DNA of 54,117 nucleotides from contig JALOPN010000001.1 of NCBI GenBank assembly GCA_025453875.1, positions 1-54,117 on the forward strand. The letters run 5' to 3'. Source of the stretch: Gemmatimonadaceae bacterium (GTDB lineage Bacteria; Gemmatimonadota; Gemmatimonadetes; Gemmatimonadales; Gemmatimonadaceae). Positions 14,489 through 42,110 of this stretch are shown piece after piece (the stretch's first letter is position 1; each line of letters begins with the position of its first letter). A program made the translations under genes and the position numbers. The notes beneath the pieces were generated by a model. That model was not told the DNA's origin. It was given only the letters and a program-made list of their open reading frames with translations, and ran no database searches.

Positions 14489-14541
14489 GCGGAGTGAGCG
14501 ATTCACGGGACGCCAGCGTTCCGGGGCGGTAAGTTAGCGCG

Positions 14542-15507
14542 ATGGAACCTCGGCATCGGATTGGACGGTGGGGGTGGCGCGGCGCCCTCGCGCTTGGCGC
14601 GGCGCTGCTGCTGAACGCACCGGTGGAGGCGCAGCGGCGCTTCACCACGGCGCACCGGTGCAGCGCGTCGCAACAGGCGCGCGGCTGCCTTGTGGTGCTC
14701 GGCTCGGGCGTGCCCGTGCCCGATCCGAGCCGTATGGGGCCGGCCTACGCGGTGGTGTACGGTGACCGCACGTTTCTCTTCGATGCGGGCGCAGGCGTGA
14801 TGCGCCGCGCCGCCGAGGCGGGGCTCGCCATTGACGGCTTCACGCACGTCTTCCTGACGCATCTGCACACCGATCATACTCTCGGCCTGCCCGACGTGAT
14901 CTTCACGAGTTGGGTGATGGGGCGACGTCGCGCGATGGCGCTGACCGGGCCCCCGGGCACGGCGCGTCTTGTCGAGCATGTGCAGGTGGCGTGGTCGGAA
15001 GACATTCGGGTGCGCACCGATGGGCTCGAGCGCGGTCAACCCGGTGGGGAGCGGGTGGTGGTGCACGAGACGGACGGCGGGGTGGTCTACGACAGCGCGG
15101 GCGTACGCATTCGGGCCGTACGTGTTCCGCACGGCGAGTGGAAAACGGCCTTCGGCTATGTCATCGAGTTGCCGGAACGACGGATCGTGTTGAGTGGTGA
15201 CACGCGCGCGAGCGCCGAACTCGAAGCGGCGGCGCGACATGCGGATGTGCTGGTGCACGAGACATATCCGCTGGTGCGCCTCAAACCGGAAGATCGTCCG
15301 GGAGGCGACGCATGGCCGGCGTACATGCGGAGCGTGCATACGAGTGACGAGGAGGTGGGGGCGCTCGCCGAGCGGTCCCGCGTGCGGCTGGTGGTGCTGT
15401 CGCACGTCGTGTGGATGGGCGGGACCGATGCAGAACTCGAGGCCGGTGTGCGGCGCGGTGGCTACCGCGGCCCCATTCGCGTAGCACGTGATCTGGAGGT
15501 GTACTGA
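14542..15507 (+). CDS. secreted MBL-fold metallo-hydrolase (RNase Z/ElaC-like core)
   Basis: The N-terminal signal is WRGALALGAALLLNAPVEAQ. Motifs are LTHLHTDHTLG and a distal SGDT..HE..LSH. Confidence 0.75.
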   Translation: MEPRHRIGRWGWRGALALGAALLLNAPVEAQRRFTTAHRCSASQQARGCLVVLGSGVPVPDPSRMGPAYAVVYGDRTFLFDAGAGVMRRAAEAGLAIDGFTHVFLTHLHTDHTLGLPDVIFTSWVMGRRRAMALTGPPGTARLVEHVQVAWSEDIRVRTDGLERGQPGGERVVVHETDGGVVYDSAGVRIRAVRVPHGEWKTAFGYVIELPERRIVLSGDTRASAELEAAARHADVLVHETYPLVRLKPEDRPGGDAWPAYMRSVHTSDEEVGALAERSRVRLVVLSHVVWMGGTDAELEAGVRRGGYRGPIRVARDLEVY

Positions 15508-30746: not shown

Positions 30747-32429
30747 TCAGCCCCCGCAGCGCGCCGCGGGATCTTGCTGGTCGCGCGGCAACACGGCCAG
30801 ACGCTGCGGCCGATTCGCGATGGTCGAGGCGATGTCGTGCACGAAGCGTGCGACGCGTGCGCTCAGATCGTAGTTGATGTACTGCGGCTCGTCCGTCGGC
30901 ATGTGGTAGTCGCGCGAGTACCCGAGCGAGAAGTACGTCGTGGGAATGCCCTTGCGGATGTAGCTGACCTGATCGCTGCGGCAGAATCGGTTGAGCCGAT
31001 TCGTGCGGTCCCACGAATAGTCGATGACCATGGGTTCATCGCGCACCGCGTTCAGCGAATCGATCATGTCGCCGAACTCGACCGACACACGCCGCGAGCC
31101 GAGCATCTGCACCGAGTGCGGTCCACCGAACTTCACGTCGGTCACGCGGCCCTTGCCGAGCATGTCCATGTTGTGCGCGGCCACGACGGAGTCGAGCGGC
31201 ACCGTGGGATGCTCCGTCCACCACGCCGAGCCGAGCAGCCCCTTCTCTTCGGCCGCGTGCGCGTGAAAGAGGATGGAACGTGCCGGCCGCGGACCCGTGG
31301 CAAAGCGTTCGGCGATCTCGAGCAGCACCATGCTGCCGCTGCCGTCATCATCGGCGCCGTTGTTCACCGTGTCGAGGCGCGGCGGTCGAACGGCGCGTGC
31401 CTTGGCGATGAGCCCGTTGATCTCGCCCCACTGCTGCGGCGTCACGGCATCGATCGACACGCGATCGTTCGCGCCTTGCGGACGCATCACCGTGTTGAAC
31501 GCGCGGAGTGAATCGTGGTCTGGCGCCGCCCCGCGCACCATGCCCACGTGGTCGCTGTGCGCACCGAGCAGCACGTATTGCCCCTTCCGCGCCGGATCGG
31601 CCCCCGGCAGGATGGCGAGGACGTTGCGCACCGGATGCTCGAGCGCCGTGTACGTGTACGTCCACGCACCGCTCAGCGGCTGCCCTGTGGCGCCGGCGGC
31701 GAGTCCGCTCGCGGCCTGCCCGAAGAGTCGCGACAGCGCGCCCGATGTGATGAGCGCGCCGCCCATGGTGCCCGCGACATTCACCTTCATGCCGACGCGC
31801 TCCGTGAACGCCGTGCTCGGCAGGTTGTCCGAGACAAAGAGCAGGACGGCGGCGCCGGCGGCGCGAGCCGCCGCGATCGCGGCCGGTGGCTGCCCCCCAG
31901 CAGGTGCGCCCACGAACACCACGGCGCGTCCCTTCATCTGCTCGGCCGAGAGCGCGGCCTGCGCCACCGGGCCGGCGAACACCGGTACGACGCCGTCGAA
32001 CGTCACCGCACCCGACACGCCCAGCGCCGCATTCGGAGGCAGCGGCGCGAAGTCGGTGCCCGCGACCAGACGCGCCCGTCCGGCGCGCAACGTGGTGCGG
32101 TTCGCGACATACGCGGAGCGCCCGTAGTCGAGCACCTGGAAGTATGTGCCGTTCTCGCCGGCCGGGATCAGGCCGAGCCGCTTGAACTCGGCCGCGATGT
32201 AGTCGGTGCCCTTGATGTTGCCGAGCGTACCCGCCTCGCGCCCCATCATGGAATCGTCGGCGAACTGGTAGAGGCGTGTGCGCAGATCGTTGGCCGTGAT
32301 GGCCGCTTCGGTGGGGCGCGGTGCCCAGGTGCGCGGGCCTTCGTCGGGCCAGACGGTCTGGGCGACGAGGGGCGACGAGGCGGGCAGCAGGAGCGCGGTC
32401 AGAGCCGCGAGGACGACGGGAGATCGCAT
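30747..32429 (-). CDS. secreted M28-family aminopeptidase with a PA (protease-associated) insert
   Basis: The ATG at 32429 gives the signal MRSPVVLAALTALLLPASSPLVAQ. The metal-ligand motifs are GAHSDHVG, NNGADDDGSG and AAEEKGLLGS. The 183 codons upstream in the track ORF are rejected as not protein-like. Confidence 0.85.
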   Translation of the reverse strand: MRSPVVLAALTALLLPASSPLVAQTVWPDEGPRTWAPRPTEAAITANDLRTRLYQFADDSMMGREAGTLGNIKGTDYIAAEFKRLGLIPAGENGTYFQVLDYGRSAYVANRTTLRAGRARLVAGTDFAPLPPNAALGVSGAVTFDGVVPVFAGPVAQAALSAEQMKGRAVVFVGAPAGGQPPAAIAAARAAGAAVLLFVSDNLPSTAFTERVGMKVNVAGTMGGALITSGALSRLFGQAASGLAAGATGQPLSGAWTYTYTALEHPVRNVLAILPGADPARKGQYVLLGAHSDHVGMVRGAAPDHDSLRAFNTVMRPQGANDRVSIDAVTPQQWGEINGLIAKARAVRPPRLDTVNNGADDDGSGSMVLLEIAERFATGPRPARSILFHAHAAEEKGLLGSAWWTEHPTVPLDSVVAAHNMDMLGKGRVTDVKFGGPHSVQMLGSRRVSVEFGDMIDSLNAVRDEPMVIDYSWDRTNRLNRFCRSDQVSYIRKGIPTTYFSLGYSRDYHMPTDEPQYINYDLSARVARFVHDIASTIANRPQRLAVLPRDQQDPAARCGG

Positions 32430-33418
32430 CGGGGGCGGGGCAGGAGTGGGGTGACCACAGAAATGTCGCCCACGCGGTATGTTGGCGCCATGCAACGCAC
32501 CCCTCTCTCCTCTGTGACGCGTCCCTCGGCACGACTCGCGATCGCCCTCGTGGCGGTTGTACGCGCCAGCCGCATGCAGGCGATACAGGCGCGGCGAGCC
32601 TGATCCGCTCAATGCCAGGAGACCCAGCCTGACCTGCTGACGGGTGACGTGAGGCGCGACGCGACAAGCATCCGGACTCTCGTGCGGTCGTCGATCGCTC
32701 TCAATCGTGACGCACAGCCCGACCGAACCCGTGGTTGGCGCCGCCTGACATCCGCATAATCGCAGCCGATGCATCCTGAGCGCGTTCTCCACCGGTTGCC
32801 GCTGGTGTTCGGCGTCTGGAAGAACCTGAGACCCGCATGGAGACGCGGATTGGCGCCATAGGTGAAAGGCTCTCGTCGATGAGGCAACACCCTCGGGCCA
32901 TTGGTGATGACGGGTGTCCCCGCGAAGAATCACGAGTATCTGCTCCGGCGGAAGGACTTCGCCGACAAGCACGATCATGAAAAACTTAACGACCGCGAGC
33001 AGCCGTTCCGGCGGCCGTGCCGGTCATGATCGCTGAGTGGCAGGCGACGGTGCCGGAGCCGAAGACGCGCTGCCTTGGGCGATACGTGCAGGCTCGAGGA
33101 GCGTCCCTCAAGAACTAGTGGTACGCGTGCACGAGGGTGCGCACGAATTCTGCACCATTGAAAACAATGATGCTTGAGCACGCAATCAATCTGGGACCGG
33201 GTGCGAGTCACGCTAACGCAGGAGTCAGTGAGCGCAACTTCCGTCCTCCACCGAACCGTTCCACTGTTGGACTCCACCGGCATCATGTCCCTTCAGCCGC
33301 CGTACGCGGTGGCGTCGCGCCGGGTCGAACGCTGTCACGGGGCAGACGAGGCGCCCGGGTGGACCTGTGCCATCGATACAGCGGTACGCCGTGGCGGGTT
33401 GATCCGTGCGCAATACCC

Positions 33419-33448: not shown

Positions 33449-33890
33449 CATAAGAACGAACAGCGCTTCACGCATGACGTCTGGCAATCTCGTGCGCTGC
33501 GCGCGATTGGCGGATGAATGGACAGCATCCGGCTCGGCTTGCGCATTGTCACTGCGGCGGACACCGTATCGAGGAGGAGGTCGAAGTGGGTGCTGCGCCG
33601 AGTCAGACTCGAACAGCGCGATCGCAGCCATCTACTCGGAGACACCCAAACACCGCTGGAGGTAGCCGATGTGTAGCATCGTACCGATCGGTCGTGGGCG
33701 CTGGCCTCCCTCGCAACCGGCAAGTGGTGCGCGCCGATCGCCTCGATCCTGTCTTCGCGGGACTACGTGGTCGATGCAACCGCAATCGCGCAGCTTTCTC
33801 CCGACGATACTGTCGCTCGGGAACTCTCCTGTGTGCACAAGCCCGTATACGGCGGGCCAAAGCAGCACCTCACTCGACCGGAACCAACAC

Positions 33891-34163
33891 ATGAGCATTC
33901 CAGAACAGTACGCTTACGCTTGTTCCAGACTCGCAAGGTTATTGTCAAGAAGCTCAATCCGAACTCGTATCGTCGAGTTGCTCGTGCAGGGAAAGTCTCG
34001 GAAAGCCATCGCGAGCGCCTTAAATCGCTCGCCGCACACGATTGATGCACACATCAAGCAGCTATATCGCGGCGTGGGAGTATATGATCGCGCACAGTTG
34101 ATCGTAGTCGCGGTACTCCTGTTCCGATTCGGGATATCTTCCCCCTCCCCCAATTTCGGGTAA
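33891..34163 (+). CDS. small LuxR/GerE-type helix-turn-helix transcription regulator (no receiver or ligand domain)
   Basis: LSRSSIRTRIVELLVQGKSRKAIASALNRSPHTIDAHIKQLYRGVGVYDRAQLIVVAV fits the LuxR_C HTH consensus (L..RE.EVL.L...G.S.K.IA..L.IS..TV..H...I..KLGV..R). I chose the ATG at 33891; the upstream part of track ORF 33669 is not protein-like. Confidence 0.7.
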   Translation: MSIPEQYAYACSRLARLLSRSSIRTRIVELLVQGKSRKAIASALNRSPHTIDAHIKQLYRGVGVYDRAQLIVVAVLLFRFGISSPSPNFG

Positions 34164-34333
34164 TGGCGTCGAGTAGGCTTGCTCGGCACAGTTATGCAAG
34201 CACGGTCGGAGCGTGATCATTTGTCTCATCGGTAACGGACCTGCAATACGACACGTGGCTCGGGTTGCGAGCAATGGCGCGACGATCGTCGTGTACGTCG
34301 AGGGGCGGAGTCACAATCGAGGAGTGCCTGGTT

Positions 34334-35575
34334 ATGAGCGTGTTCGATGCTTCGTTGGTGACAAGCAGCCAGCAAGTCTCCGCCGCGCTGCTGGCAGTCT
34401 TCCAGTCACTCGTGACGCCCAGCCGCTACAGCAAACTTGCGAAGTCGATGACATGGGTATGCGCTGGGTTCCTTCTCGCTGCGTGCGCTCGCGATCCTCT
34501 GCCGGTTCCGTGGCGCCAATGGCCCGACGGCTCGACCGATCGGGTGCTCATTGATGCAAGTAGCGATTGTTCCGGCTGCTTGGTGCTTACGACGAAGGCG
34601 ACTCTCGGTGCAGAGCCGAGTGAAGGAGTCCTCGAGGACAAAGGGGCGCTCGAGTACGTGGTCCAAGATTCGGCTGGCAGGTACTGGGTCGGTCAGCGAG
34701 GTGCCGCGAAAGTTTTCTCGCCTTCTGGCAAGTACCTCCGAACGGTCGGCGCTCGCGGCCAAGGGCCCTTCGAGTTCGAATTCGCTCAGCCGGTTGCAGT
34801 GGACGAAGCGGGAATGATTCGACTGCTTGACCCTCGCCTTGGACGTGAGACGGTGGTCCGGGCCGACTTCAGTTTCTTCAGCGATGGGCCGATGCCCGTC
34901 GGCTTCGGTGATGTGGCACGCCTTCCCGGAAACGGAAGCCGATATGTCCTCGCAAAGTGGATCGCGACTCCCGAGAGAGTTGGCTTTCCACTTCACATCG
35001 TCTCGGGACTCGACATCGAACGGTCATTCGGCGTGTCCCCGAGTGTCGACACCTCCGTCATGACTCCGAGCGACGCTGAACGGGTACTGGCCGTGACCGC
35101 GGACGGCTACGTATGGTCGGCGACGCTCGATCGGTACATCATCGAGGCGTGGGACACTACAGGTCGACGGATCGTGGGTTTCGAGTTGCCGAGGCTCAAC
35201 GAAGGTACCGTCCGCCCCGGTGCTTGGTCGTGGGAGAATCCACCGCCGAATCACCTCGGTGCCGTCGCTCCTTTTGATGACCGGTTTCTCCTAGTGATTA
35301 CGCGCCACCGCAAGGCGAACTGGAAGGATCTTGTGATCGAGCGCGTTTCTCCAGACGGCGTTCCCTATCTGAGCGCAAAGGACGGTCAAGTGCCATCCTT
35401 GTATCGTTCTCGGCTCGATCTGCTGGATCTCGACCGCGCTACGGTTGTCGCAAGCACTTGGTACGACGGGTGGTTGATGAGATTCGTTGCGCCGCAGAGC
35501 GTCGTTCAACTGACCTATTCCAAAGACGGGTGGCCTGTGCTTCGAGTTCTCGGGATCGCCTATCGCCAGCAGTAG
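34334..35575 (+). CDS. lipoprotein, probable 6-bladed (NHL/TolB-like) beta-propeller
   Basis: The lipobox is KLAKSMTWVCAGFLLAAC. Propeller-like strands recur, including DSAGRYWVGQRG..KVFSPSGKYLRTVGARGQGPFEF..PVAVDEAGMIRLLD. The start is uncertain: ATG 34334 (GAGGA upstream), GTG 34412 or ATG 34448. The codons are A/T-richer than in the flanking genes. Confidence 0.6.
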   Translation: MSVFDASLVTSSQQVSAALLAVFQSLVTPSRYSKLAKSMTWVCAGFLLAACARDPLPVPWRQWPDGSTDRVLIDASSDCSGCLVLTTKATLGAEPSEGVLEDKGALEYVVQDSAGRYWVGQRGAAKVFSPSGKYLRTVGARGQGPFEFEFAQPVAVDEAGMIRLLDPRLGRETVVRADFSFFSDGPMPVGFGDVARLPGNGSRYVLAKWIATPERVGFPLHIVSGLDIERSFGVSPSVDTSVMTPSDAERVLAVTADGYVWSATLDRYIIEAWDTTGRRIVGFELPRLNEGTVRPGAWSWENPPPNHLGAVAPFDDRFLLVITRHRKANWKDLVIERVSPDGVPYLSAKDGQVPSLYRSRLDLLDLDRATVVASTWYDGWLMRFVAPQSVVQLTYSKDGWPVLRVLGIAYRQQ

Positions 35576-35621
35576 TACCTTTCGCCCGCCAGTAAATCGT
35601 CACGTCCACAGAGGGGTTGAG

Positions 35622-36125
35622 ATGGCTGGTCATTACTCGTTAAGCACATTCGTCGTTGGCGCACTTGCCTCGTTGCTGCTCGCTGCCGCGATGCCCAAGA
35701 CGTCCTTGGCACAAGGTAAGGACTGCGGGAGCAACTGCGGCTCATGCGGTACAGGCAAGAAGGAAGGGTTTGGTTATCACGAGCTCGGCGAGTACAACAT
35801 GACCTGTGCCGAAGCCGTCACTGGGTGCTTTCGCTGCTGGGGGCAGCACACACTCGTGCGTGAGTCGCCCCTGAGTGCCGAGGGCCTCTTGCGAGCGATC
35901 CGCACGTCATCGCTCGATGACTTAGTTCGGCTCGCGCCTTCGCTCAAGGGGCAGGTGTTCGTGTACCCGCAGCGCAAGATGGTTGCCGTTCGAGGTGAAG
36001 AATGCGCGAAGGATCGAATCGTTGCTCTCGCGTTTCTGCCACAAGACCGGATTGACGTCCTGACACGAAGGGGAATTGGCGATCTGGCGCAGTTCCTCGA
36101 TCAGGGATCCGTCGCGAGTCGATGA
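35622..36125 (+). CDS. exported Cys-rich protein of unknown function
   Basis: GAGGGG lies 5 nt before the ATG. The Sec signal is FVVGALASLLLAAAMPKTSLAQG. Two Cys triplets follow, CGSNCGSCG and CAEAVTGCFRC, plus one more Cys (EECAK) in the following ~100-aa domain, which I cannot assign. Its TGA overlaps the ATG of the next gene (ATGA at 36122..36125). Confidence 0.6.
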   Translation: MAGHYSLSTFVVGALASLLLAAAMPKTSLAQGKDCGSNCGSCGTGKKEGFGYHELGEYNMTCAEAVTGCFRCWGQHTLVRESPLSAEGLLRAIRTSSLDDLVRLAPSLKGQVFVYPQRKMVAVRGEECAKDRIVALAFLPQDRIDVLTRRGIGDLAQFLDQGSVASR

Positions 36126-37015
36126 ACATCGCAGCGCCCGCGGTTGGAACGGCAGAAGCCCGGCACGGAAGAAACTGTGCCGGGTCTGTGGTTCCCGCTT
36201 ACGATCTGCTCCGTTCAGTAGGGGCTGCGCTAGCTCGCTGGTTCGGTTCGGTTGTGTGTGTCCCGGCTTTGGCGGCGCAGCCCCAGAATCCAATCGCGCA
36301 CGAAGTTGAGGCCGGTTGGTTCCGAGTGATCGCACCAGCAGGTGCCGTCGGGAAAACAACGTACGAGCGCGTCACCACCGCTGCTCGCTCCCAGCGACCG
36401 CTTCCTGGTCTTCCTCAAGGCGTACTGCGACAGACGCAGGTCACGATCAGTCTCGCACTTCGCATGAACGAAGACATGGTTGGATGGGCGTCTACTGAGG
36501 GTGGACTTGTCGTATTGCGGCTGGCAGATGTTGAGAAATGGGATGATCAGACCCTGTATCGAAACCTGCGACACGAACTGGCTCACGTCGGCCTTTCGCG
36601 ATACCTGCTGGGTGCGAAGGTTCCTCGATGGCTGGCGGAAGGATACAGCGAGTTCGCTGCTGGAGGCCTGACATGCGAGCGTGAAGTACGGTTGATCTTC
36701 TTCTTGCGGAGTCAGCAGCAAGAAAGGGACAGTGCACGCTTAAGACTACGCCTTGACGAGATCGGCAACACACGCCTCGGCTACGACTTGTTCGCCAGTT
36801 TCTTCGCCTTCCTCGAGGCCTCACCGATGTCATCGGTAACGAGTGGCATGATGTTCGCGAACATGCAACGCTGGGGTGTGGATGAGGGATTGCGACGCAC
36901 GTTCGGAGTGAGCATTGAGGTGCTCGAGCAACGATGGCGCTCGCCATTAGTGAAGAAGTATCGCCAAAGTCTAGACGTTGTCACCGAACGTTGCGTTGCG
37001 GCAGACGTGCGCTGA
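36122..37015 (+). CDS. exported MA-clan zinc metallopeptidase (Peptidase_MA_2-like, HExxH + WLxEG)
   Basis: LRHELAHVGLSRYLLGAKVPRWLAEGYSEF contains HExxH with a Glu about 18 residues downstream, the gluzincin arrangement. The N-terminal region has a signal-like segment ARWFGSVVCVPALAAQ. Confidence 0.7.
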   Translation: MNIAAPAVGTAEARHGRNCAGSVVPAYDLLRSVGAALARWFGSVVCVPALAAQPQNPIAHEVEAGWFRVIAPAGAVGKTTYERVTTAARSQRPLPGLPQGVLRQTQVTISLALRMNEDMVGWASTEGGLVVLRLADVEKWDDQTLYRNLRHELAHVGLSRYLLGAKVPRWLAEGYSEFAAGGLTCEREVRLIFFLRSQQQERDSARLRLRLDEIGNTRLGYDLFASFFAFLEASPMSSVTSGMMFANMQRWGVDEGLRRTFGVSIEVLEQRWRSPLVKKYRQSLDVVTERCVAADVR

Positions 37016-37385
37016 AGAGTCCGCTCGCTATGTGGACACCTGCTTGAGTTCAGCGCGGGCTGATTGGCGTGAGATCGAGGGGGGGAGCGGTGCGGCATCC
37101 GTTGGCCCCTTTTCGAGGTCGGTCTATCACCCTCGGGAGGATCGCAGCATCGAAGAGGAGCCACCGCCCGCGGTGACCACCCGGCTCCGCGCGGCCTTGT
37201 TACGCCACGCTCGACTGGTTGCTTCGTGGGCACACGCAGACCTTCCCGCACGGCGTGATGCAGGACGAATCAATCGAACCGCCAGGGGCAGACCGACAGG
37301 GACGTCGTACTGCCGAGGCGAGGGCTAATCGCGGTCGCTATCGCCCGCCTCGCAACATGGAGTCGGTGAACGGCATGGATAGCTT

Positions 37386-37868
37386 GTGGCGTCCGCGCTT
37401 CCGCGAGCACGATGCGAGGATACAGAGTTGCGCCTTGCCGCTGCGACGGCGGTGACGTCCACACGGCAGTATGCGATCGCAGCGTCGTATCGGAGCGGCC
37501 TCTCGTGCGGCGGCTGTACGCTGGCGCTCCGCGGGCTGCTGCGCGACGGAATACCGCTCCGGGCCAGCCTCGCGCGGCGCCTTGCCGAGCGGCGAAAGCG
37601 CGACTCTGGGCAGTGGAATCGGCAGCAGCGTTCGGTGCTCGCCCCCGTGTACGTGCGTCTCGCCGAGACTCGCGTCAAGGTTGAGCTCGAACTGACGGAA
37701 GGCAAGCTCCTACTCGCACTCGCGGCTCTCGGCACGTCAGGTCGATCCGGCGGAGGGACGGTGGTCATGGTGAACCAGATGCCCACCACCAGCGATCTCG
37801 TGGCGCGTATGCAGGCGCTCGTGTACGCGGCGCTCGAGGAGAGTCGCTGGTCCGCCCCCCGACGCTGA
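37386..37868 (+). CDS. hypothetical protein (weakly supported)
   Basis: It has a strong G/C preference at third codon positions across the ORF, unlike the other five frames here. The C-terminal half looks protein-like (VYVRLAETRVKVELELTEGKLLLALAALG...DLVARMQALVYAALEE). I recognise no family, and the start is unclear. Confidence 0.3.
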   Translation: MASALPRARCEDTELRLAAATAVTSTRQYAIAASYRSGLSCGGCTLALRGLLRDGIPLRASLARRLAERRKRDSGQWNRQQRSVLAPVYVRLAETRVKVELELTEGKLLLALAALGTSGRSGGGTVVMVNQMPTTSDLVARMQALVYAALEESRWSAPRR

Positions 37869-37907
37869 CACTCGTCCGAGGATCTGCCACGCTCGGCGTG
37901 GTCGAGA

Positions 37908-38735
37908 TCAGGAGCTGCTGCGCTTCACGCCCGGGCGCCTCGGCATCGTGAGCAGCGCGCGCACACTGTCGTGCTCCGCGGGGGCCATGTGCGTGTCCAC
38001 GCCGTACACGAGCTGCGTGCGGTCGAGCGTGGAGAAGGTACCGAAGAGGCGGTCCCACACGGAAAACACGTTGCCGTAGTTCGTATCGGTGTAGGGCAGG
38101 ACGTAGTGGTGATGCACCTTGTGCATGTCCGGTGAGACGAGGAGCCACGAGATCACCCGATCCACGCCCGCCGGCAGCGCGATGTTGGCGTGGTTGAACT
38201 GGCTGAGTACCACGCTCACCGACTGGTACAGAAACACCAGCCACATTGGCGCCCCCGTGACCAGCACCGCGAGCGTGGTGAAGACGAAGCGCACGACGCT
38301 CTCACCCGGATGGTGGCGGTTGGCCGTGGTGGTATCGACCTCGGTGTCGGAGTGATGCACGAGGTGCAGCCGCCAGAGCACCGGCAGCCGATGCTCGGCC
38401 CAGTGCGCCAGCCAGGCACCGATGAGGTCGAGGAGCAGCAGGCCGACAAGCGACTGCGCCCACAGGGGCAGCGCCGGCCCGGCAAAGAGCACGCCGACGC
38501 GGTTGGCCACGACCCAGTCCGAGGCGCCCACGAGCACGAAGGCCAGGGCGAAGTTGACGAGGATGGTCGTGGCCGTGAAGAAGAAGTTTCGACCGGCGTG
38601 CCGCCACTTGTCGTAGCGGAAGCGGACGAGGGGCACGGCACTTTCGAGCAGCCAGAAGACAGCGATTCCGCCGGCGAGGATGGCGGCGCGGTGCGACGAC
38701 GGAATGGTGGCGAAGTAGTCGACGAGACGGGCCAT
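37908..38735 (-). CDS. sterol desaturase/fatty acid hydroxylase family membrane protein
   Basis: The three His boxes are HWAEH, HLVHH and HKVHHH, and there are four or more hydrophobic segments. Confidence 0.85.
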   Translation of the reverse strand: MARLVDYFATIPSSHRAAILAGGIAVFWLLESAVPLVRFRYDKWRHAGRNFFFTATTILVNFALAFVLVGASDWVVANRVGVLFAGPALPLWAQSLVGLLLLDLIGAWLAHWAEHRLPVLWRLHLVHHSDTEVDTTTANRHHPGESVVRFVFTTLAVLVTGAPMWLVFLYQSVSVVLSQFNHANIALPAGVDRVISWLLVSPDMHKVHHHYVLPYTDTNYGNVFSVWDRLFGTFSTLDRTQLVYGVDTHMAPAEHDSVRALLTMPRRPGVKRSSS

Positions 38736-38930: not shown

Positions 38931-41900
38931 ATGCGATCGTCCCGCCCCTTGCCAACCGGCACCCCGACCCCGCGTCGGCGGCCGATGGCGCGCCTCTGGC
39001 TGTCGGCCCTTGCGGCGCTGCTCAGCGTGTCGCGGCCGGCGGCCGCCCAGCAGGCGGTCCGGGTGGTCACCGATGCCGGCGGCAGTCGCCTGCAAGTCGA
39101 CGGCACAGACTTCATGGTCCTCGGGATGAACTGGGACTACTTCCCGATCGGCCAGAACTACGCGTACAACTTCTGGGGCCAATCCGACGCGTTCATCCAG
39201 GCCGCGCTCGACCGCGAGATGGCGCTGCTCAAGAGCATGGGCGTGAACACGATCCGACAGTACGTCGGCGTGCCGCCGCGGTGGGTGCGCTACATCTACG
39301 AGAAATACGGCATTTACACGGTGCTCAACCACGCGGTGGGTCGCTACGGCGTGACCGTGAACGGCGCGTATCGGGCCAGCACCGACTACTCCGATCCGGC
39401 GGTGCGGCAGCTGCTGCGCAACGAGGTCACCGCCATGGTGGAGTCGTTCCGCGGTACGCCCGGTGTGCTGATGTATCTGCTCGGCAATGAGAACAACTAC
39501 GGGCTCGAGTGGAAGTCGGCCGAGACCGAGAACCTGCCGGTGGGTGAGCGCAACGCCGCGAAGGCGCGCTACCTCTATTCGCTCATGGGAGAGATCGCGC
39601 GCGCCGTGAAGGCGATCGATCCGTCACGTCCGGTGGCGATGGCCAACGGCGATCTGCAGTACATCGACATCATCGCGCAGGAAGCGAAGGGGCTCGATGT
39701 GTTCGGCGCGAACGTCTATCGCGGCATCTCGTTCGGGACGCTCTTTCAGGAAGTGAAGGACAAGCTCGGCTTGCCGGTGATGTTCACCGAGTTCGGCGCC
39801 GACGCGTACAACGCACGCGAGCGTCGTGAGGACCAGGTCACGCAGGCGAAGTATCTGCTCGGGCAGTGGCGCGAGATCTACGCGCAGGCGGCGGGCAAGG
39901 GCGGCGTGGGCAACTCGATCGGCGGCATGACGTTCCAGTGGTCGGATGGCTGGTGGAAGGTGGGACAGGAGTCCAACCTCGATGTGCAGGACACCGACGC
40001 CGGGTGGTCGAATCAGGCGTACCCCGAGGACTGGATGCCCGGGGACAACAACATGAACGAAGAGTGGTGGGGCATCATGGCGAAGGGTCGCCCCGACGCC
40101 TCGGGACAGTTCCGCCTGTATCCGCGCGCCGCGTACTACGCGCTGCAGCGCGCCTACACACTCGACCCCTACGCGCCCACCACCACGCGCGCCGCGATCG
40201 ACGCGCATTTTGCCGGCATTGCGCCCGCCGCCATGGAGCTGCTCGCGCAGGGTGACCAGGGGGCACGAAGCGCCGCGCAGAACGATCGGTTCCGCATCGC
40301 CGGCATGCGTCTCGAACTGTCAACGTTCAACACGGGCGGCGCCAACATCACCACACCGGGCAGCACGAGCCCGAGCGCGACGGCGCGTCCCGCGTTCCGC
40401 GGCTTCGATCATCTCGAGTCGTACTTCGTGGACGTCGAAGCGAACCCGGCGCCGAATGTTTCGGCTACGCTCTCGATGAACGTGGTGGGCAACGTGCCGG
40501 ACAACCCGATCAACGAACTGTTCTACGAATCGCGCGCGCGCGATCGGACGCTGCGCACCGATGGCGCCAACCTCACCACGAACGGCTTCGAACGCCTGCG
40601 CGTGTACGGGGCGAAGCTGCGCTGGGACGAGCGCGACTTCCGCATCGACGGCTTCTATCGCACGGGGCACTACCACTGGGGCTACGAGGGCGACTTCTTC
40701 GGCCTCTATCGCGAAGCCAACTACGGGCGCAACATCGACATCTACGGCGGCGAAGCACCGCTCGGCTTCGAGTTCACCGGCAAGCGCTCGCTCAACGGCT
40801 TCAAGTTCGCGCTCGGCCCGGAACTCTGGTGGGGCGCCAATCCCGCGCTGCTCGCGAAGTATCAGCGTGACATCGCCGGCGTGAAGGTGACGGGTGTGTT
40901 CCAGGAGGACTTCACGCGCCGCGGCGCCACGGCCAGTTCGTTCGCCGTGCCGCAGCCGAAGGTGCGCACGTCGACGCTGCACCTGCAGACCAACGTCGGC
41001 CTCGCGCAGGTTGAGCTGGGCGGCATCTGGGGCGGCAACACCCGCGTCGGGCGTGCGTTCCAGATCGCCGATGGCGAACCGGGCAACTATCGCGTGCTCG
41101 GTGATCGCGTGAAGGCGAGCGACGCGTGGGGTGGCAAGGCGAAGGTGAGTGTCTCGGCCGGTCGCATCAACTGGTACGCGCAGGGCGCCGCGATGGGTCT
41201 CGTGGCCGACGGTGGCCCGACCGCCACCATGACCTTCACCGGCTGGCAGTTGAAGGACACGGGCATGGGCAATCAGTGGAACGCGCTGTCCGGCCTCACG
41301 TACACGCTCGGGAACTGGCAGATCGCGCCCAACTTCCTCTGGCAGAAGCCCATCGTGGGGCCGGTGCCGAGCGATGTGCCGGCGCCCGGCCGTCCGCGCA
41401 ACATCCTCGACGATCCGTTCTCGGTGCGCTGGAATCGTGAGACGGTGGCCGGCGAAATGCTGCTCACCTTCGACCCGACGCCGGCGACGTACTTCCACCT
41501 GTGGGACAACGACCTGCGCGAGGATGCGCGATTCGCGTTCAACCTCGGGTACGTCTATCGCCACCTGCCCACCACGCAGGACGCCGCCATCGGTATCCTC
41601 GCGGATGGTCGCACGTTCTTCGCCTTCCCCGGTGCAGCACCCGCGCAGGATCTGTGGGAAGTGCGGAGCCGCATCGTGTCGCGGCTGACGCCGGATATCC
41701 GACTCATCGCCAATCTCTTTGGCGGGACGGGACAGGCCAACGGTGACAGCGATCGCCTCATCAAGCGCTACGGCGGCGATCTGCGCGTCGTACGCGGTCA
41801 GGTCAAGCTGCAGGGCGAGGCCCGGTTCAACGACTGGGGACCGTTCGACTACCACCGCGACTTCAACCTCACCTTCCCCACGCAGTACGCGGCCGACCTG

Positions 41901-42110
41901 TCGTATTCGCTGGGTGCGCCGAGCTTCCTCGATTCGCCGGCGACGCGCTTCGGCGTCCGCGGGATCTGGCGCAGCCTCGATCGGTTCTCGCCGCGCTACT
42001 GCCCGGCGCAGGTGGCGGATTCGTTCGGCACGCTGACGTGTGATCCGACCGCCCCCGGCCCGCGTGGTTCCGAGTGGGAAGTGCGCACGTACCTCATGGT
42101 GGGCTGGTGA
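38931..42110 (+). CDS. secreted clan GH-A (beta/alpha)8 glycoside hydrolase domain fused to a large C-terminal outer-membrane-type beta-barrel
   Basis: The signal is MARLWLSALAALLSVSRPAAAQQ. The N-terminal ~400 aa carry NTIRQY, LLGNENNY (acid/base NE) and VMFTEFGADAY (nucleophile E). The C-terminal ~650 aa are rich in alternating-hydrophobic, aromatic strands and end ...EVRTYLMVGW. The alternative start is the ATG at 38985. Confidence 0.75.
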   Translation: MRSSRPLPTGTPTPRRRPMARLWLSALAALLSVSRPAAAQQAVRVVTDAGGSRLQVDGTDFMVLGMNWDYFPIGQNYAYNFWGQSDAFIQAALDREMALLKSMGVNTIRQYVGVPPRWVRYIYEKYGIYTVLNHAVGRYGVTVNGAYRASTDYSDPAVRQLLRNEVTAMVESFRGTPGVLMYLLGNENNYGLEWKSAETENLPVGERNAAKARYLYSLMGEIARAVKAIDPSRPVAMANGDLQYIDIIAQEAKGLDVFGANVYRGISFGTLFQEVKDKLGLPVMFTEFGADAYNARERREDQVTQAKYLLGQWREIYAQAAGKGGVGNSIGGMTFQWSDGWWKVGQESNLDVQDTDAGWSNQAYPEDWMPGDNNMNEEWWGIMAKGRPDASGQFRLYPRAAYYALQRAYTLDPYAPTTTRAAIDAHFAGIAPAAMELLAQGDQGARSAAQNDRFRIAGMRLELSTFNTGGANITTPGSTSPSATARPAFRGFDHLESYFVDVEANPAPNVSATLSMNVVGNVPDNPINELFYESRARDRTLRTDGANLTTNGFERLRVYGAKLRWDERDFRIDGFYRTGHYHWGYEGDFFGLYREANYGRNIDIYGGEAPLGFEFTGKRSLNGFKFALGPELWWGANPALLAKYQRDIAGVKVTGVFQEDFTRRGATASSFAVPQPKVRTSTLHLQTNVGLAQVELGGIWGGNTRVGRAFQIADGEPGNYRVLGDRVKASDAWGGKAKVSVSAGRINWYAQGAAMGLVADGGPTATMTFTGWQLKDTGMGNQWNALSGLTYTLGNWQIAPNFLWQKPIVGPVPSDVPAPGRPRNILDDPFSVRWNRETVAGEMLLTFDPTPATYFHLWDNDLREDARFAFNLGYVYRHLPTTQDAAIGILADGRTFFAFPGAAPAQDLWEVRSRIVSRLTPDIRLIANLFGGTGQANGDSDRLIKRYGGDLRVVRGQVKLQGEARFNDWGPFDYHRDFNLTFPTQYAADLSYSLGAPSFLDSPATRFGVRGIWRSLDRFSPRYCPAQVADSFGTLTCDPTAPGPRGSEWEVRTYLMVGW

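Follow-up and report, generated by a model that had tools for sequence, protein, structure and literature searches.

Several exported metalloproteases are encoded in an operon with their cognate inhibitors, as known for AprA/AprI, serralysin/Inh, protealysin/emfourin, and the KLIKK proteases of Tannerella with their lipoprotein potempins. Gluzincins are inhibited by the disulfide-rich proteins SMPI and IMPI, which follow the standard mechanism. In NlpI-Prc of Escherichia coli and LbcA-CtpA of Pseudomonas, a lipoprotein adaptor recruits substrates to a periplasmic protease. The amine dehydrogenases MADH (MauB/MauA) and QHNDH (QhpB/QhpC) join a propeller to a small Cys-rich subunit, and QHNDH also needs a dedicated protease, QhpE. 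The locus analyzed here lies in a window of 54,117 nt (the whole stretch of Gemmatimonadaceae DNA under study) and encodes an exported Cys-rich protein, an HExxH metallopeptidase, and an NHL-repeat propeller. By analogy, it resembles AprA/AprI, KLIKK/potempin, and protealysin/emfourin in that the gene for a small exported partner adjoins that for a zinc endopeptidase and is inherited together with it; SMPI and IMPI would share the disulfide-rich character of this partner, and the potempin system the presence of a lipoprotein partner. Unlike those inhibitors, the partner in this locus has two domains and seven Cys and lacks detectable sequence or fold similarity to them; inhibition by it is putative, and the obligatory third component, the NHL propeller, is without counterpart in known inhibitor-protease systems. 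The pairing of a repeat-domain lipoprotein with a soluble periplasmic protease may likewise be compared to NlpI-Prc and LbcA-CtpA; however, these consist of TPR lipoproteins and S41 serine proteases encoded by chromosomal housekeeping genes, have no third Cys-rich partner, and show no homology to the locus. MADH and QHNDH present superficially the same cast of a periplasmic propeller and a small exported Cys-rich protein, with a protease added in QHNDH, but QhpE is subtilisin-like, whereas the HExxH protein would be of the metallo type.

The preliminary description of this DNA had proposed a two-component module of the Cys-rich and HExxH proteins. Both ORFs are present as described (Table 1), but the unit is a triad. 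Genes for the two proteins and for an NHL-propeller protein of ∼400 aa were found together in 16 of 16 independent loci with adequate flank, the propeller gene being linked as strictly as the other two. These loci span 25 to 70% identity and take in distant representatives of the Cys-rich family (P0100, P0150, and P0162), which were followed from the Cys-rich side by exact look-ups. When metagenomes were scanned with the HExxH alignment, a single clear triad (L095) and a contig too short to judge (L096) were gained. Wherever the source genome of a triad locus is named, it belongs to Gemmatimonadota, the only phylum in which the triad has been seen so far. Pairwise identities are correlated among the three families (r of 0.88 to 0.95 overall and 0.49 to 0.60 among distant pairs), and their divergence rates are similar (0.28, 0.33, and 0.34). 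Gene order and spacing differ among clades, and the propeller gene can separate the other two (orders cys-prop-hexxh and cys-cys-prop-hexxh). Copy number varies as well: two Cys-rich paralogues accompany a single HExxH protease in L006 and L093, the propeller gene occurs in three copies in L010, and L001 contains a propeller fragment. In the wider, non-triad Peptidase_MA_2 family, consistent neighbors were absent from the few loci recovered, in which genes were called crudely by GC3. The three-gene association is real, dedicated, and conserved. None of the three points on which the proposed pairing had been made to hinge told against it: homologues of the Cys-rich ORF exist in about 200 family clusters, they adjoin an MA-clan peptidase in each of the 16 adequately flanked loci, and Pfam, NCBIfam, PADLOC, PHROGs, and the literature place neither protein in a characterized pathway. 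The claim that no system of this composition had been described also stands, the triad itself being undescribed in the literature. Signal sequences for export are recognizable on all three products.

Table 1. Features of the triad locus and their positions in the window
Feature	Position	Strand	Basis
Small LuxR/GerE-type HTH regulator	33891..34163	+	Pfam GerE, E 8.5e-9, 35.4 bits, above cut-off
NHL-repeat beta-propeller putative lipoprotein, six-bladed predicted	34412..35575	+	Profile vs PDB, lipobox
Shine-Dalgarno-like GAGGGG, 5 nt before ATG 35622	35611..35616	+	Read from sequence
Exported Cys-rich protein, 167 aa	35622..36125	+	ORF, sequence, family alignment
Exported putative zinc metallopeptidase of the gluzincin type, 297 aa counted from overlapping ATG	36122..37015	+	Motif, Pfam, AF2/Foldseek
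Conserved RNA hairpin in first ∼25 codons of annotated HExxH ORF	36150..36191	+	Folding and conservation

The Cys-rich ORF has the good Shine-Dalgarno sequence (Table 1) and the Sec signal noted earlier, the latter reading MAGHYSLSTFVVGALASLLLAAAMPKTSLA with predicted cleavage between A30 and Q31, ahead of QGKDCG. The h-region and the A-x-A/Q site are conserved in the family: of 153 members, 127 have A30 and 131 have Q31. We discarded the idea that the "AQ" preceding the first Cys is a trait of this family, because all SPI-type signals examined in the window have Q at +1, which looks like a lineage-wide, Q-rule-like habit. The first Cys triplet matches the earlier reading (Cx3Cx2C; C35-x3-C39-x2-C42), but the second, given as Cx7Cx2C, was off by one and is C62-x6-C69-x2-C72. 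These six Cys within ∼40 residues are followed by a linker (residues ∼73 to 85), gappy and variable in length across the family alignment, and by an alpha/beta C-terminal domain (residues 85 to 163). The part after the Cys triplets, described as a domain of ∼100 aa with a single further Cys, comprises ∼95 aa with C128 alone. All seven Cys are invariant or near-invariant in the 153 family members, far beyond chance. In conservation, the C-terminal domain equals or exceeds the N-terminal knot, R118, G125, and C128 being near-invariant; Y58, M60, and E48, close to the Cys residues, are conserved too. In the AF2 model, pLDDT exceeds 90 in the C-terminal domain, and the N-terminal module is of low confidence; C39xxC42G and C69xxC72 flank predicted strands (46 to 53 and 56 to 66), where pLDDT is 42 to 62.

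Word-indexed searches returned only 2 to 8 relatives of the Cys-rich protein, which gave it the look of a near-orphan, and an exhaustive HMMER search revealed the ∼200 clusters (at 50% identity). No Pfam family scored above threshold for the 99 members scanned, and NCBIfam, PDB (by profile), PADLOC, and PHROGs yielded no family match either. Zinc-finger families were likewise without a match in Pfam or, by profile, in PDB. Foldseek searches with the model were insignificant, the best E values being 0.12 in PDB (SH2-like hits) and 0.07 in BFVD (miscellaneous hits), and neither sequence nor fold similarity was found to the inhibitor and pro-peptide families Inh/AprI, SMPI, potempins, PepSY/FTP, and emfourin. 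The earlier statement that the C-terminal domain could not be placed in any family thus holds for Pfam, NCBIfam, PDB, and Foldseek, and the protein represents a new family lacking both a catalogue entry and a structural neighbor. A radical SAM reading of CX3CX2C was dismissed, given that the motif lies 4 residues past the signal cleavage site of a 167-aa exported protein; the Radical_SAM Pfam model matched 1 of the 99 members, at an E value of 4e-4 and below threshold. Ferredoxin or FeoB-associated readings of the same motif were set aside on similar grounds, the protein being small and exported and the hits sub-threshold Cys-motif noise.

The HExxH protein carries the gluzincin signature attributed to it, with HELAH at residues 151 to 155 followed, after 14 residues, by WLAEGYSE (E173 and E177), and its predicted fold agrees. 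The motif HExxH-x14-W[FL]xEG[FY][SA]E is intact in 17 of 17 relatives, with a spacing of 13 to 17 residues, and R218, Y221, and D222 are invariant in seven aligned orthologues. Its N terminus is signal-like, as had been reported, although the h-region (residues ∼35 to 52) follows an extension of ∼30 aa; the true start is therefore not certain, an alternative being GTG 36188. The window protein scored 21.1 bits against Peptidase_MA_2 (PF13485; cut-off, 32.4), whereas 34.9 bits were reached by the L090 triad orthologue and 38 to 66 bits by relatives in the wider family of Gemmatimonadota, which makes the window copy a divergent member by transitivity only. No PDB hit was obtained by sequence, even with a profile. 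Foldseek searches with the AF2 model (pTM, 0.73) retrieved the M9 peptidases ColT/ColG (E 4e-5), the M30 peptidase lugdulysin (TM 0.55), and the M1 peptidases IRAP/ERAP1 at probability 1.00, with E values from 4e-5 to 8e-4, TM scores of 0.42 to 0.55, and 264 to 283 aligned columns of the 297-residue query. Judged from the model, the protein is a divergent Peptidase_MA_2 gluzincin with a predicted thermolysin-like, two-subdomain fold and a putative peptidase. It has in common with M9 collagenases, the M30 enzymes lugdulysin and hyicolysin, and M1 enzymes the HExxH motif and a downstream Glu in the next helix as third zinc ligand, at only 12 to 17% identity to the solved structures. It differs from them in being small (∼240 aa mature) and single-domain, in lacking a pro-peptide and the GxMEN exopeptidase motif, and in the obligatory linkage of its gene to two partner genes. 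The catalytic N-terminal sheet begins at about residue 59 of the model, right past the signal region, leaving no pro-domain. C185 and the C-terminal C290 occur together in 14 relatives and are jointly lost in L010 and L011; they probably form a disulfide.

Profile searches against PDB related the third protein to Thin NHL (E 1e-29), TRIM71 (2e-23), Brat, the PknD sensor, and 4raa, a "putative exported protein," and a single NHL repeat is clearly recognizable in the sequence. Its start is uncertain (34265 to 34448). The DUF5128 model (cut-off, 22.9 bits) gave 19.1 bits for the window copy and 12.6 to 31.6 bits for ten orthologues, only L090 (31.6) passing, and the ScyF-NHL NCBIfam model matched 10 of 14 members. 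The window copy has the lipobox FLLAA-C with a conserved CxxC just after it, and of the other twelve propellers in the alignment, all but that of L006, which has a plain signal, show similar lipoboxes; the propeller is thus predicted to be usually a lipoprotein. With the exported DUF5128/NHL proteins, such as 4raa and ScyF of the scytonemin cluster, it has in common the NHL signature G-x-G-P-x-E-F ... P ... D ... D-x-x-N-x-R, a length of ∼400 aa, export, and often a lipoprotein nature. A family-specific N-terminal CxxC and the fixed partnership with two genes set it apart from DUF5128 and ScyF, for which we know of no established mechanism.

Both ORFs of the original proposal lie in a low-GC island of ∼4 kb. 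The GC content is 0.58 to 0.61 over 33 to 37 kb compared with ∼0.68 elsewhere, and GC3 is 0.59 to 0.67 compared with 0.80 to 0.90 in the flanking genes. This agrees with the lower-G+C insert initially recognized, along with its own regulator, now assigned to the GerE/LuxR HTH type, and the propeller lipoprotein. The regulator gene, whose probable ATG (33891) lies inside ORF 33669..34163, is the first of the island. Orthologous small GerE genes precede the triad in L001/L002 and L003, and a sigma-70/ECF or AraC regulator takes this place in other clades. Composition is island-like in several genomes (GC3 0.1 to 0.25 below that of neighbors). The triad is inserted at differing genomic sites and is flanked by transposases (L092), an integrase (L090/L091), or toxin-antitoxin genes (L001 and L012). 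At the island boundaries, searches for flanking direct or inverted repeats, tRNA, and Rfam elements were negative.

The stop codon of the Cys-rich ORF and the start codon of the HExxH ORF do overlap (gtcgATGAac, 36119 to 36128). The stoichiometric co-expression that had been deduced from this arrangement is not general, however, as ATGA was found only in one close clade (the window, L002, L003, and L009), and other clades have gaps of 20 to 200 nt or a different gene order. In addition, the RNA folds into a conserved hairpin 30 to 70 nt inside the HExxH ORF, in which positions 36158 to 36168 pair with 36175 to 36185 around a purine-rich loop (GGAAGA). Its stability is −24 to −27 kcal/mol across the clade: the minimum free energy is −27.1 kcal/mol (z, −3.96) in the window and −24 to −26 kcal/mol (z, −3.5 to −5.9) in L003, L009, and L002, where 0 of 200 shuffles were as stable. 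The hairpin is conserved at the DNA level, with wobble-preserving changes. In L010 and L012, too, strong hairpins come directly after the Cys-rich gene. Hairpins after or near this gene argue for unequal rather than equal expression. A promoter and terminator scan detected nothing beyond shuffle expectation.

The readings first offered, a substrate/maturase pair, a protease/inhibitor pair, and an exported effector with its activator, are all candidates. As a tentative explanation, the Cys-rich protein may be dedicated to the protease as a substrate-like partner that keeps it latent, on an NHL-propeller lipoprotein platform. The locus would then be a self-contained, horizontally mobile, three-gene module for extracytoplasmic proteolysis, each copy with its own transcription factor. 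All three proteins would be Sec-exported into an oxidizing periplasm, a compartment supported by the joint retention or loss of the protease Cys pair and by the propeller CxxC. The propeller, lipid-anchored to the membrane, might serve for docking or targeting, a role that is pure conjecture on our part; as an anchor, it leaves the three propeller copies of L010 unexplained. The HExxH enzyme, having no pro-domain of its own, would be held latent, and possibly assisted in folding, by the Cys-rich protein, whose disulfide-knotted N-terminal module could inhibit it like SMPI and IMPI, as a rigid mimic of a substrate that binds tightly. The conserved, unpaired C128 might bind zinc or join two chains. 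Once the partner was released or slowly cleaved, the protease would be set loose on a target in the envelope or of foreign origin. Besides the strict linkage, the intact active site, and the precedent of operon-encoded inhibitors, we count in favor of a latency partner the odd Cys number that results from six near-invariant Cys in 40 residues plus a conserved seventh, and the strong hairpins that three clades have behind the Cys-rich gene, which would agree with more partner than protease being made. Against it speak the lack of similarity to known inhibitor or pro-peptide families and the low-confidence model of the N-terminal module, which keeps its disulfide connectivity or zinc binding putative.

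The presence of two Cys-rich paralogues per protease, as is common for precursor genes, together with the layout of two domains and a linker, fits a processed pro-protein at least equally well. In such a system, which is nearly as likely as a latency partner and somewhat doubtful in itself, the Cys-rich protein would be the product, and the gluzincin would cut its linker after export and disulfide formation. A knotted N-terminal peptide of ∼40 residues, starting with Gln and possibly with pyroglutamate, would be freed from its C-terminal carrier to function as a signal or as an antimicrobial or metal-binding peptide, with the propeller as adaptor, receptor, or self-protection. The variable, gappy linker joining a small knot to a well-folded domain suits such processing, and hairpins in the same three clades recall those after the structural genes of many peptide operons. 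The mobility of the module with its own regulator agrees with this, the tandem propellers of L010 and the L001 fragment resemble immunity-gene arrays, and the Cys-rich family diverges fastest of the three, although at a rate only slightly above that of its partners. On the other hand, the family alignment reveals no evident cleavage motif in the linker, none of the loci examined encodes an exporter for passage across the outer membrane, and the conservation of the carrier, which is no lower than that of the knot, would be unusual for a discarded pro-region. Rather unlikely, but the most novel outcome, would be either a new extracytoplasmic maturation system, in which a Sec-exported, oxidatively knotted protein that lacks a detectable structural relative is cut by its dedicated gluzincin on an NHL-propeller lipoprotein, or a new structural class of metalloprotease inhibitors. 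The maturation system would yield a disulfide-rich, possibly pyroglutamyl-capped peptide of ∼40 residues, "defensin-like" or pheromone-like, made without any RiPP enzyme, and propeller paralogues would be receptors or immunity proteins.

The amine dehydrogenases are the precedent for a heteromeric periplasmic enzyme or metal-handling complex, with the propeller as large subunit, the Cys-rich protein as small subunit, and the HExxH protein as assembly or maturation protease. The small subunit might hold a Cys-ligated metal or a Cys-derived cofactor, e.g., in a zinc-ribbon-like arrangement of two CxxC and extra thiols. The two CxxC motifs flank a beta-hairpin, predicted at low confidence, like zinc-ribbon knuckles, Y58, M60, and E48 lie conserved near the Cys, and enzymes are known among NHL or six-bladed propellers (PAL and SGL), the ScyF-NHL matches pointing the same way. 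We nevertheless hold such a complex to be improbable. The loci examined encode no noted radical-SAM, cytochrome, flavoprotein, or metal-chaperone genes; the sequences inspected lack a Tat signal, save one RRR-containing N terminus in L008; the Cys-rich family has no conserved Trp for a quinone cofactor, and Pfam families, the MADH light chain included, were below threshold in its 99 scanned members; the propeller has one invariant His only and no evident metal triad; and a disulfide-supporting compartment disfavors free thiolate clusters. The MADH/QHNDH analogy was accordingly rejected, accessory genes and cofactor residues being absent from the loci examined. Comparably unlikely, if by a hair less so, is a horizontally acquired module for periplasmic protection or resistance, whose protease would degrade an incoming envelope-targeting agent (a toxin, lytic enzyme, or metal) and whose propeller and Cys-rich proteins would bind or neutralize it. 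Island-like GC3, differing insertion sites beside transposases, an integrase, and toxin-antitoxin genes, and varying dedicated regulators suit this idea; yet the module is not accompanied by any known resistance determinant or sensor, no PADLOC defense model, phage family, or viral contig matched, and the idea is too unspecific to explain the strict three-way linkage. An origin from a defense system, phage, or prophage was discarded for the same three core proteins, which had no PADLOC or PHROGs match and no IMG/VR relatives. That the genes are chance neighbors or miscalled ORFs without functional relation might be suspected from the sub-cut-off Pfam scores of the window HExxH and propeller copies and from the many spurious ORFs of high-GC genomes. 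This reading is effectively refuted by the conservation data, i.e., the 16 of 16 linked loci over 25 to 70% identity, the invariant Cys and catalytic residues, and the joint divergence of the three families, to which the confident AF2 domains may be added.

Gemmatimonadota are among the more abundant phyla of soils and sediments, and to our knowledge almost nothing is known of their envelope biology, for which the triad provides a compact, self-regulated, phylum-restricted experimental handle. If the Cys-rich protein is a latency partner, it would offer a new scaffold for inhibiting gluzincin proteases; should it instead be a pro-protein, the triad would be a new bacterial route to disulfide-rich secreted peptides. 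Either way, a divergent branch of the large, uncharacterized Peptidase_MA_2 and DUF5128/NHL families gains a testable function, and the triad shows that modules of this kind can be defined from gene neighborhoods in uncultured lineages.

The preliminary description had proposed a two-component module made up of a Cys-rich protein (gene cys) and a HExxH metallopeptidase (gene hexxh). The link between the two held, but the unit proved to be a triad that also includes an NHL-repeat propeller gene (prop) and was found in 16/16 independent loci with adequate flank. Cys-rich homologues thus adjoin MA-clan peptidase genes in every one of them, and full-text literature on DUF5128, Peptidase_MA_2, and Gemmatimonadota with NHL/metallopeptidase yielded nothing relevant, in line with the central claim of a dedicated, undescribed association. 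Word-indexed searches returned few relatives, just two for the Cys-rich and eight for the HExxH protein, on contigs that always encoded ~400-aa, ~167-aa Cys-rich, and ~270- to 335-aa HExxH proteins. Scanning of the HExxH alignment (tblastn) against one genome per GTDB species gave 229 relatives, from which 80 loci were kept, nearly all titled Gemmatimonadota (Longimicrobiales, Gemmatimonadaceae, Palauibacter), with Gammaproteobacteria (three) and "uncultured bacterium" (two) among the labels. HMMs of the three families were built and run across every fetched locus (L numbers). HExxH matches better than ~1e-45 had both partners adjacent in all cases except L096, where the 2.4-kb contig stops at hexxh; L093 carries a triad-linked copy at just 7e-20. 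Three distant Cys-rich representatives picked for their long enough contigs (P0100, P0150, and P0162; profile E of 3e-20 to 2e-10) each lie between propeller and HExxH genes. The three families co-vary in pairwise identity (r of 0.88 to 0.95), and mean identities between distant pairs (propeller, 0.34; Cys-rich, 0.28; HExxH, 0.33) reveal similar divergence rates, as expected if the three genes were co-inherited as one unit. Across the loci compared, the three products, exported according to their predicted signals, are always co-encoded and co-diverging.

The remaining weaker HExxH matches (1e-6 to 1e-34) come from a much larger Peptidase_MA_2 family of paralogues devoid of triad neighbours (L013, L015-L089, L097-L119), for which quick neighbourhood clustering gave nothing informative. 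Sponge-derived MAGs labelled Gammaproteobacteria (L021, L033, L055) carry a Gemmatimonadota-type Peptidase_MA_2 gene, which could reflect mis-binning or lateral transfer; L026 and L018 come from sponge symbionts, Candidatus Palauibacter.

Coordinates and arrangement of features in the window and the fetched loci
Feature	Locus	Coordinates
cys (167 aa)	window	35622..36125
hexxh (297 aa)	window	36122..37015
A30/Q31 cleavage site, Cys-rich protein	window	35709-35714
Other exported ORFs with A/Q signal	window	36122..; 30747..32978 (-); 38931..42110; 14533..15507
Segment after hexxh	window	37016-37900
Next clear gene	window	37908..38735 (-)
RNA hairpin, first ~25 hexxh codons	window	36150-36191
Same	L003	2235-2285
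Same	L009	2012-2062
Same	L002	5177-5227
Order prop-cys-hexxh	most loci	
Order cys-prop-hexxh	L011, L014, L018, L095	
Order cys-cys-prop-hexxh	L006	
Order prop-cys-cys-hexxh	L093	
Two additional propeller copies downstream of hexxh	L010	
Tandem propeller genes around hexxh	L010	6109-11318
Propeller fragment after hexxh	L001	11409-11831
Same	L002	6057-6479
Degenerate Cys-rich member	L011	6359-6754
Dedicated regulator, GerE/LuxR	window clade	
Dedicated regulator, sigma-70/ECF	L004, L096	
Dedicated regulator, AraC	L006, L093	
Transposases flanking triad	L092	3536-4305; 8166-8788
Integrase flanking triad	L090/L091	L090 1710-2417
Toxin-antitoxin genes flanking triad	L001	2272-2526; 4231-5797 (listed)
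Several HigB/HigA-like pairs near triad	L012	

Both window ORFs are present as originally located, and cys has the good SD noted earlier (GAGGGG, 5 bases upstream of the ATG) as well as a Sec-type N terminus (...LLLAAAMPKTSLA/QGKDCG; the slash marks cleavage). The first Cys triplet, C35-x3-C39-x2-C42, was correctly read, but the second is C62-x6-C69-x2-C72, one residue shorter than the Cx7 spacing reported; the lone further Cys is C128, in the ~95 residues that follow this second triplet. Exhaustive HMMER searching of 1.84 billion representatives placed 200 clusters in the family at E ≤ 1e-3 (146 at E ≤ 1e-10), nearly all of 150 to 175 aa, so that homologues do exist. These seven cysteines are (near-)invariant among 153 aligned members, with G36, G49, R118, and G125 also strongly kept. 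No member reached a Pfam or NCBIfam threshold, in keeping with the earlier failure to place the ~100-aa domain; sequence and profile searches of PDB detected no relative, Foldseek with the model gave no significant match in PDB or BFVD, and public records attach no name to these proteins. AF2 modelled the C-terminal domain (residues 85 to 163) confidently as alpha-alpha-beta-beta-beta-alpha-alpha (pLDDT ~80-96) and the N-terminal module, rich in hairpins, at low confidence. A degenerate member in L011 has lost the second triplet along with some of the helical region while retaining the C-terminal G-x-x-C. The SPI-type signals inspected in the window all end in A/Q, with Gln at +1, and Gln follows the cleavage-site Ala in 131/153 family members. 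This habit resembles the Bacteroidetes "Q-rule" (N-terminal pyroglutamate), whose defining paper has Gemmatimonadota outside its analysis (PMC5837995).

The gluzincin signature of the HExxH protein is as described (HELAH at 151 to 155, WLAEGYSE 14 residues on), and its signal-like N terminus corresponds to a hydrophobic segment (residues ~35 to 52, ending ALAA/Q), though preceded by a ~30-residue extension. An intact HExxH-x13-17-W[FL]xEG[FY][SA]E occurs in 17/17 copies, and R218, Y221, and D222 are invariant across seven aligned orthologues; the protein is apparently an active gluzincin. The window copy scores 21.1 bits against Peptidase_MA_2, under the 32.4-bit threshold; its orthologue in L090 (34.9 bits) and members of the wider family (38 to 66 bits) are above it. 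The AF2 model (pTM 0.73) matches M9 collagenase peptidase domains (E of 4e-5), M30 lugdulysin (TM of 0.55), and M1 aminopeptidases; since its catalytic domain starts directly after the signal region, the protein is predicted to have no pro-domain. C185 and a C-terminal Cys are co-present in 14/17 copies and co-lost in L010 and L011. We read them as a putative disulfide, which would imply an oxidising compartment.

The third partner, the propeller lipoprotein recognized earlier, is encoded upstream of cys (~390 aa; lipobox LLAA-C), and its family profile identifies it as NHL. This profile (14 sequences) matches in PDB the NHL domains of Thin (1e-29) and TRIM71 (2e-23), together with Brat, the PknD sensor, and 4raa, an exported protein. 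Of the 14 members, 10 are matched by the NCBIfam ScyF-NHL model; DUF5128 is borderline, its threshold being passed by L090 alone. Among the aligned propellers, the lipobox is missing from L006 alone, and the CxxC that closely follows it from L018 alone. The tandem propeller genes of L010, on one Longimicrobiales chromosome, are three near-identical copies; the fragments in L001 and L002, the nearest relatives of the window, are 140-aa C-terminal pieces, and no such fragment follows hexxh in the window.

The stop/start overlap is readily seen (gtcgATGAac), but the stoichiometric co-expression deduced from it cannot be generalised. ATGA is limited to the window, L002, L003, and L009, with gaps of 20 to 200 nt or the propeller gene between cys and hexxh elsewhere; coupling is therefore a clade feature, there is no basis for presuming equal expression, and the case built on the overlap is weak. 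Within the ATGA clade the overlapping start is probably real, because the pre-stop codon, which gives the A of ATG, is always CGA or CAA, minority codons in the genes counted (CGA 34 versus CGC 135; CAA 17 versus CAG 88), and the first ~23 hexxh codons show synonymous third-position changes. This region also folds into a conserved, very stable hairpin with a purine-rich (SD-like) loop (window, -27.1 kcal/mol, z of -4.0; L002, L003, and L009, -24 to -26 kcal/mol, z of -3.5 to -5.9), which might damp protease expression, or set its timing, with respect to cys. Very strong hairpins follow cys in L010 (z of -7.0) and L012 (z of -3.2), and none was found there in L004, L008, L090, or L092.

The lower-G+C insert was borne out as a compositional island (GC of 0.58 to 0.61 at 33 to 37 kb versus ~0.68; GC3 of 0.59 to 0.67 versus 0.80 to 0.90 in flanking genes), as was its own regulator, a small upstream GerE/LuxR HTH gene (Pfam, 35 bits). 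GC returns to ~0.68 directly after the hexxh stop, and the ~0.9 kb before the next clear gene holds weak ORFs only, with no match to p140 or propeller HMMs. The module occurs at differing genomic sites, and in several genomes its GC3 is below that of its neighbours. Transposase, integrase, and toxin-antitoxin surroundings, along with this lower GC3, suggest that it moves on mobile islands; boundary repeats were not found in the window. The module matched no PADLOC or PHROGs model, and IMG/VR held no relatives.

Chance adjacency of the three genes was excluded. We tentatively favour a latency/partner model, although it is itself rather doubtful. A periplasmic metalloprotease without a pro-domain would need restraint, and the Cys-rich protein may be its latency partner, the odd conserved Cys128 serving as a ligand of the catalytic zinc or forming an interchain bond. 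Cognate inhibitors of such proteases are typically encoded alongside (AprI, potempins, emfourin), and SMPI and IMPI, the proteinaceous inhibitors known for gluzincins, are small proteins rich in disulfides that bind in a substrate-like manner. In this model the NHL lipoprotein would anchor the complex or direct it to its target, as NlpI does for Prc and LbcA for CtpA.

The main rival, a pro-protein/maturase system freeing a knotted N-terminal peptide, is in our estimation only slightly less likely than this: duplication of cys in some loci, the linker architecture of its product, and the hairpins speak for it, but the "carrier" domain is well conserved and the loci encode no exporter. Lesser possibilities are a heteromeric metal or cofactor enzyme and a protection module gained horizontally. 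Returning to the triad itself, it is composed of divergent members of two known superfamilies and a genuinely new protein family, and we rate the known general kind to which it belongs as that of a protease with operon-encoded partners.
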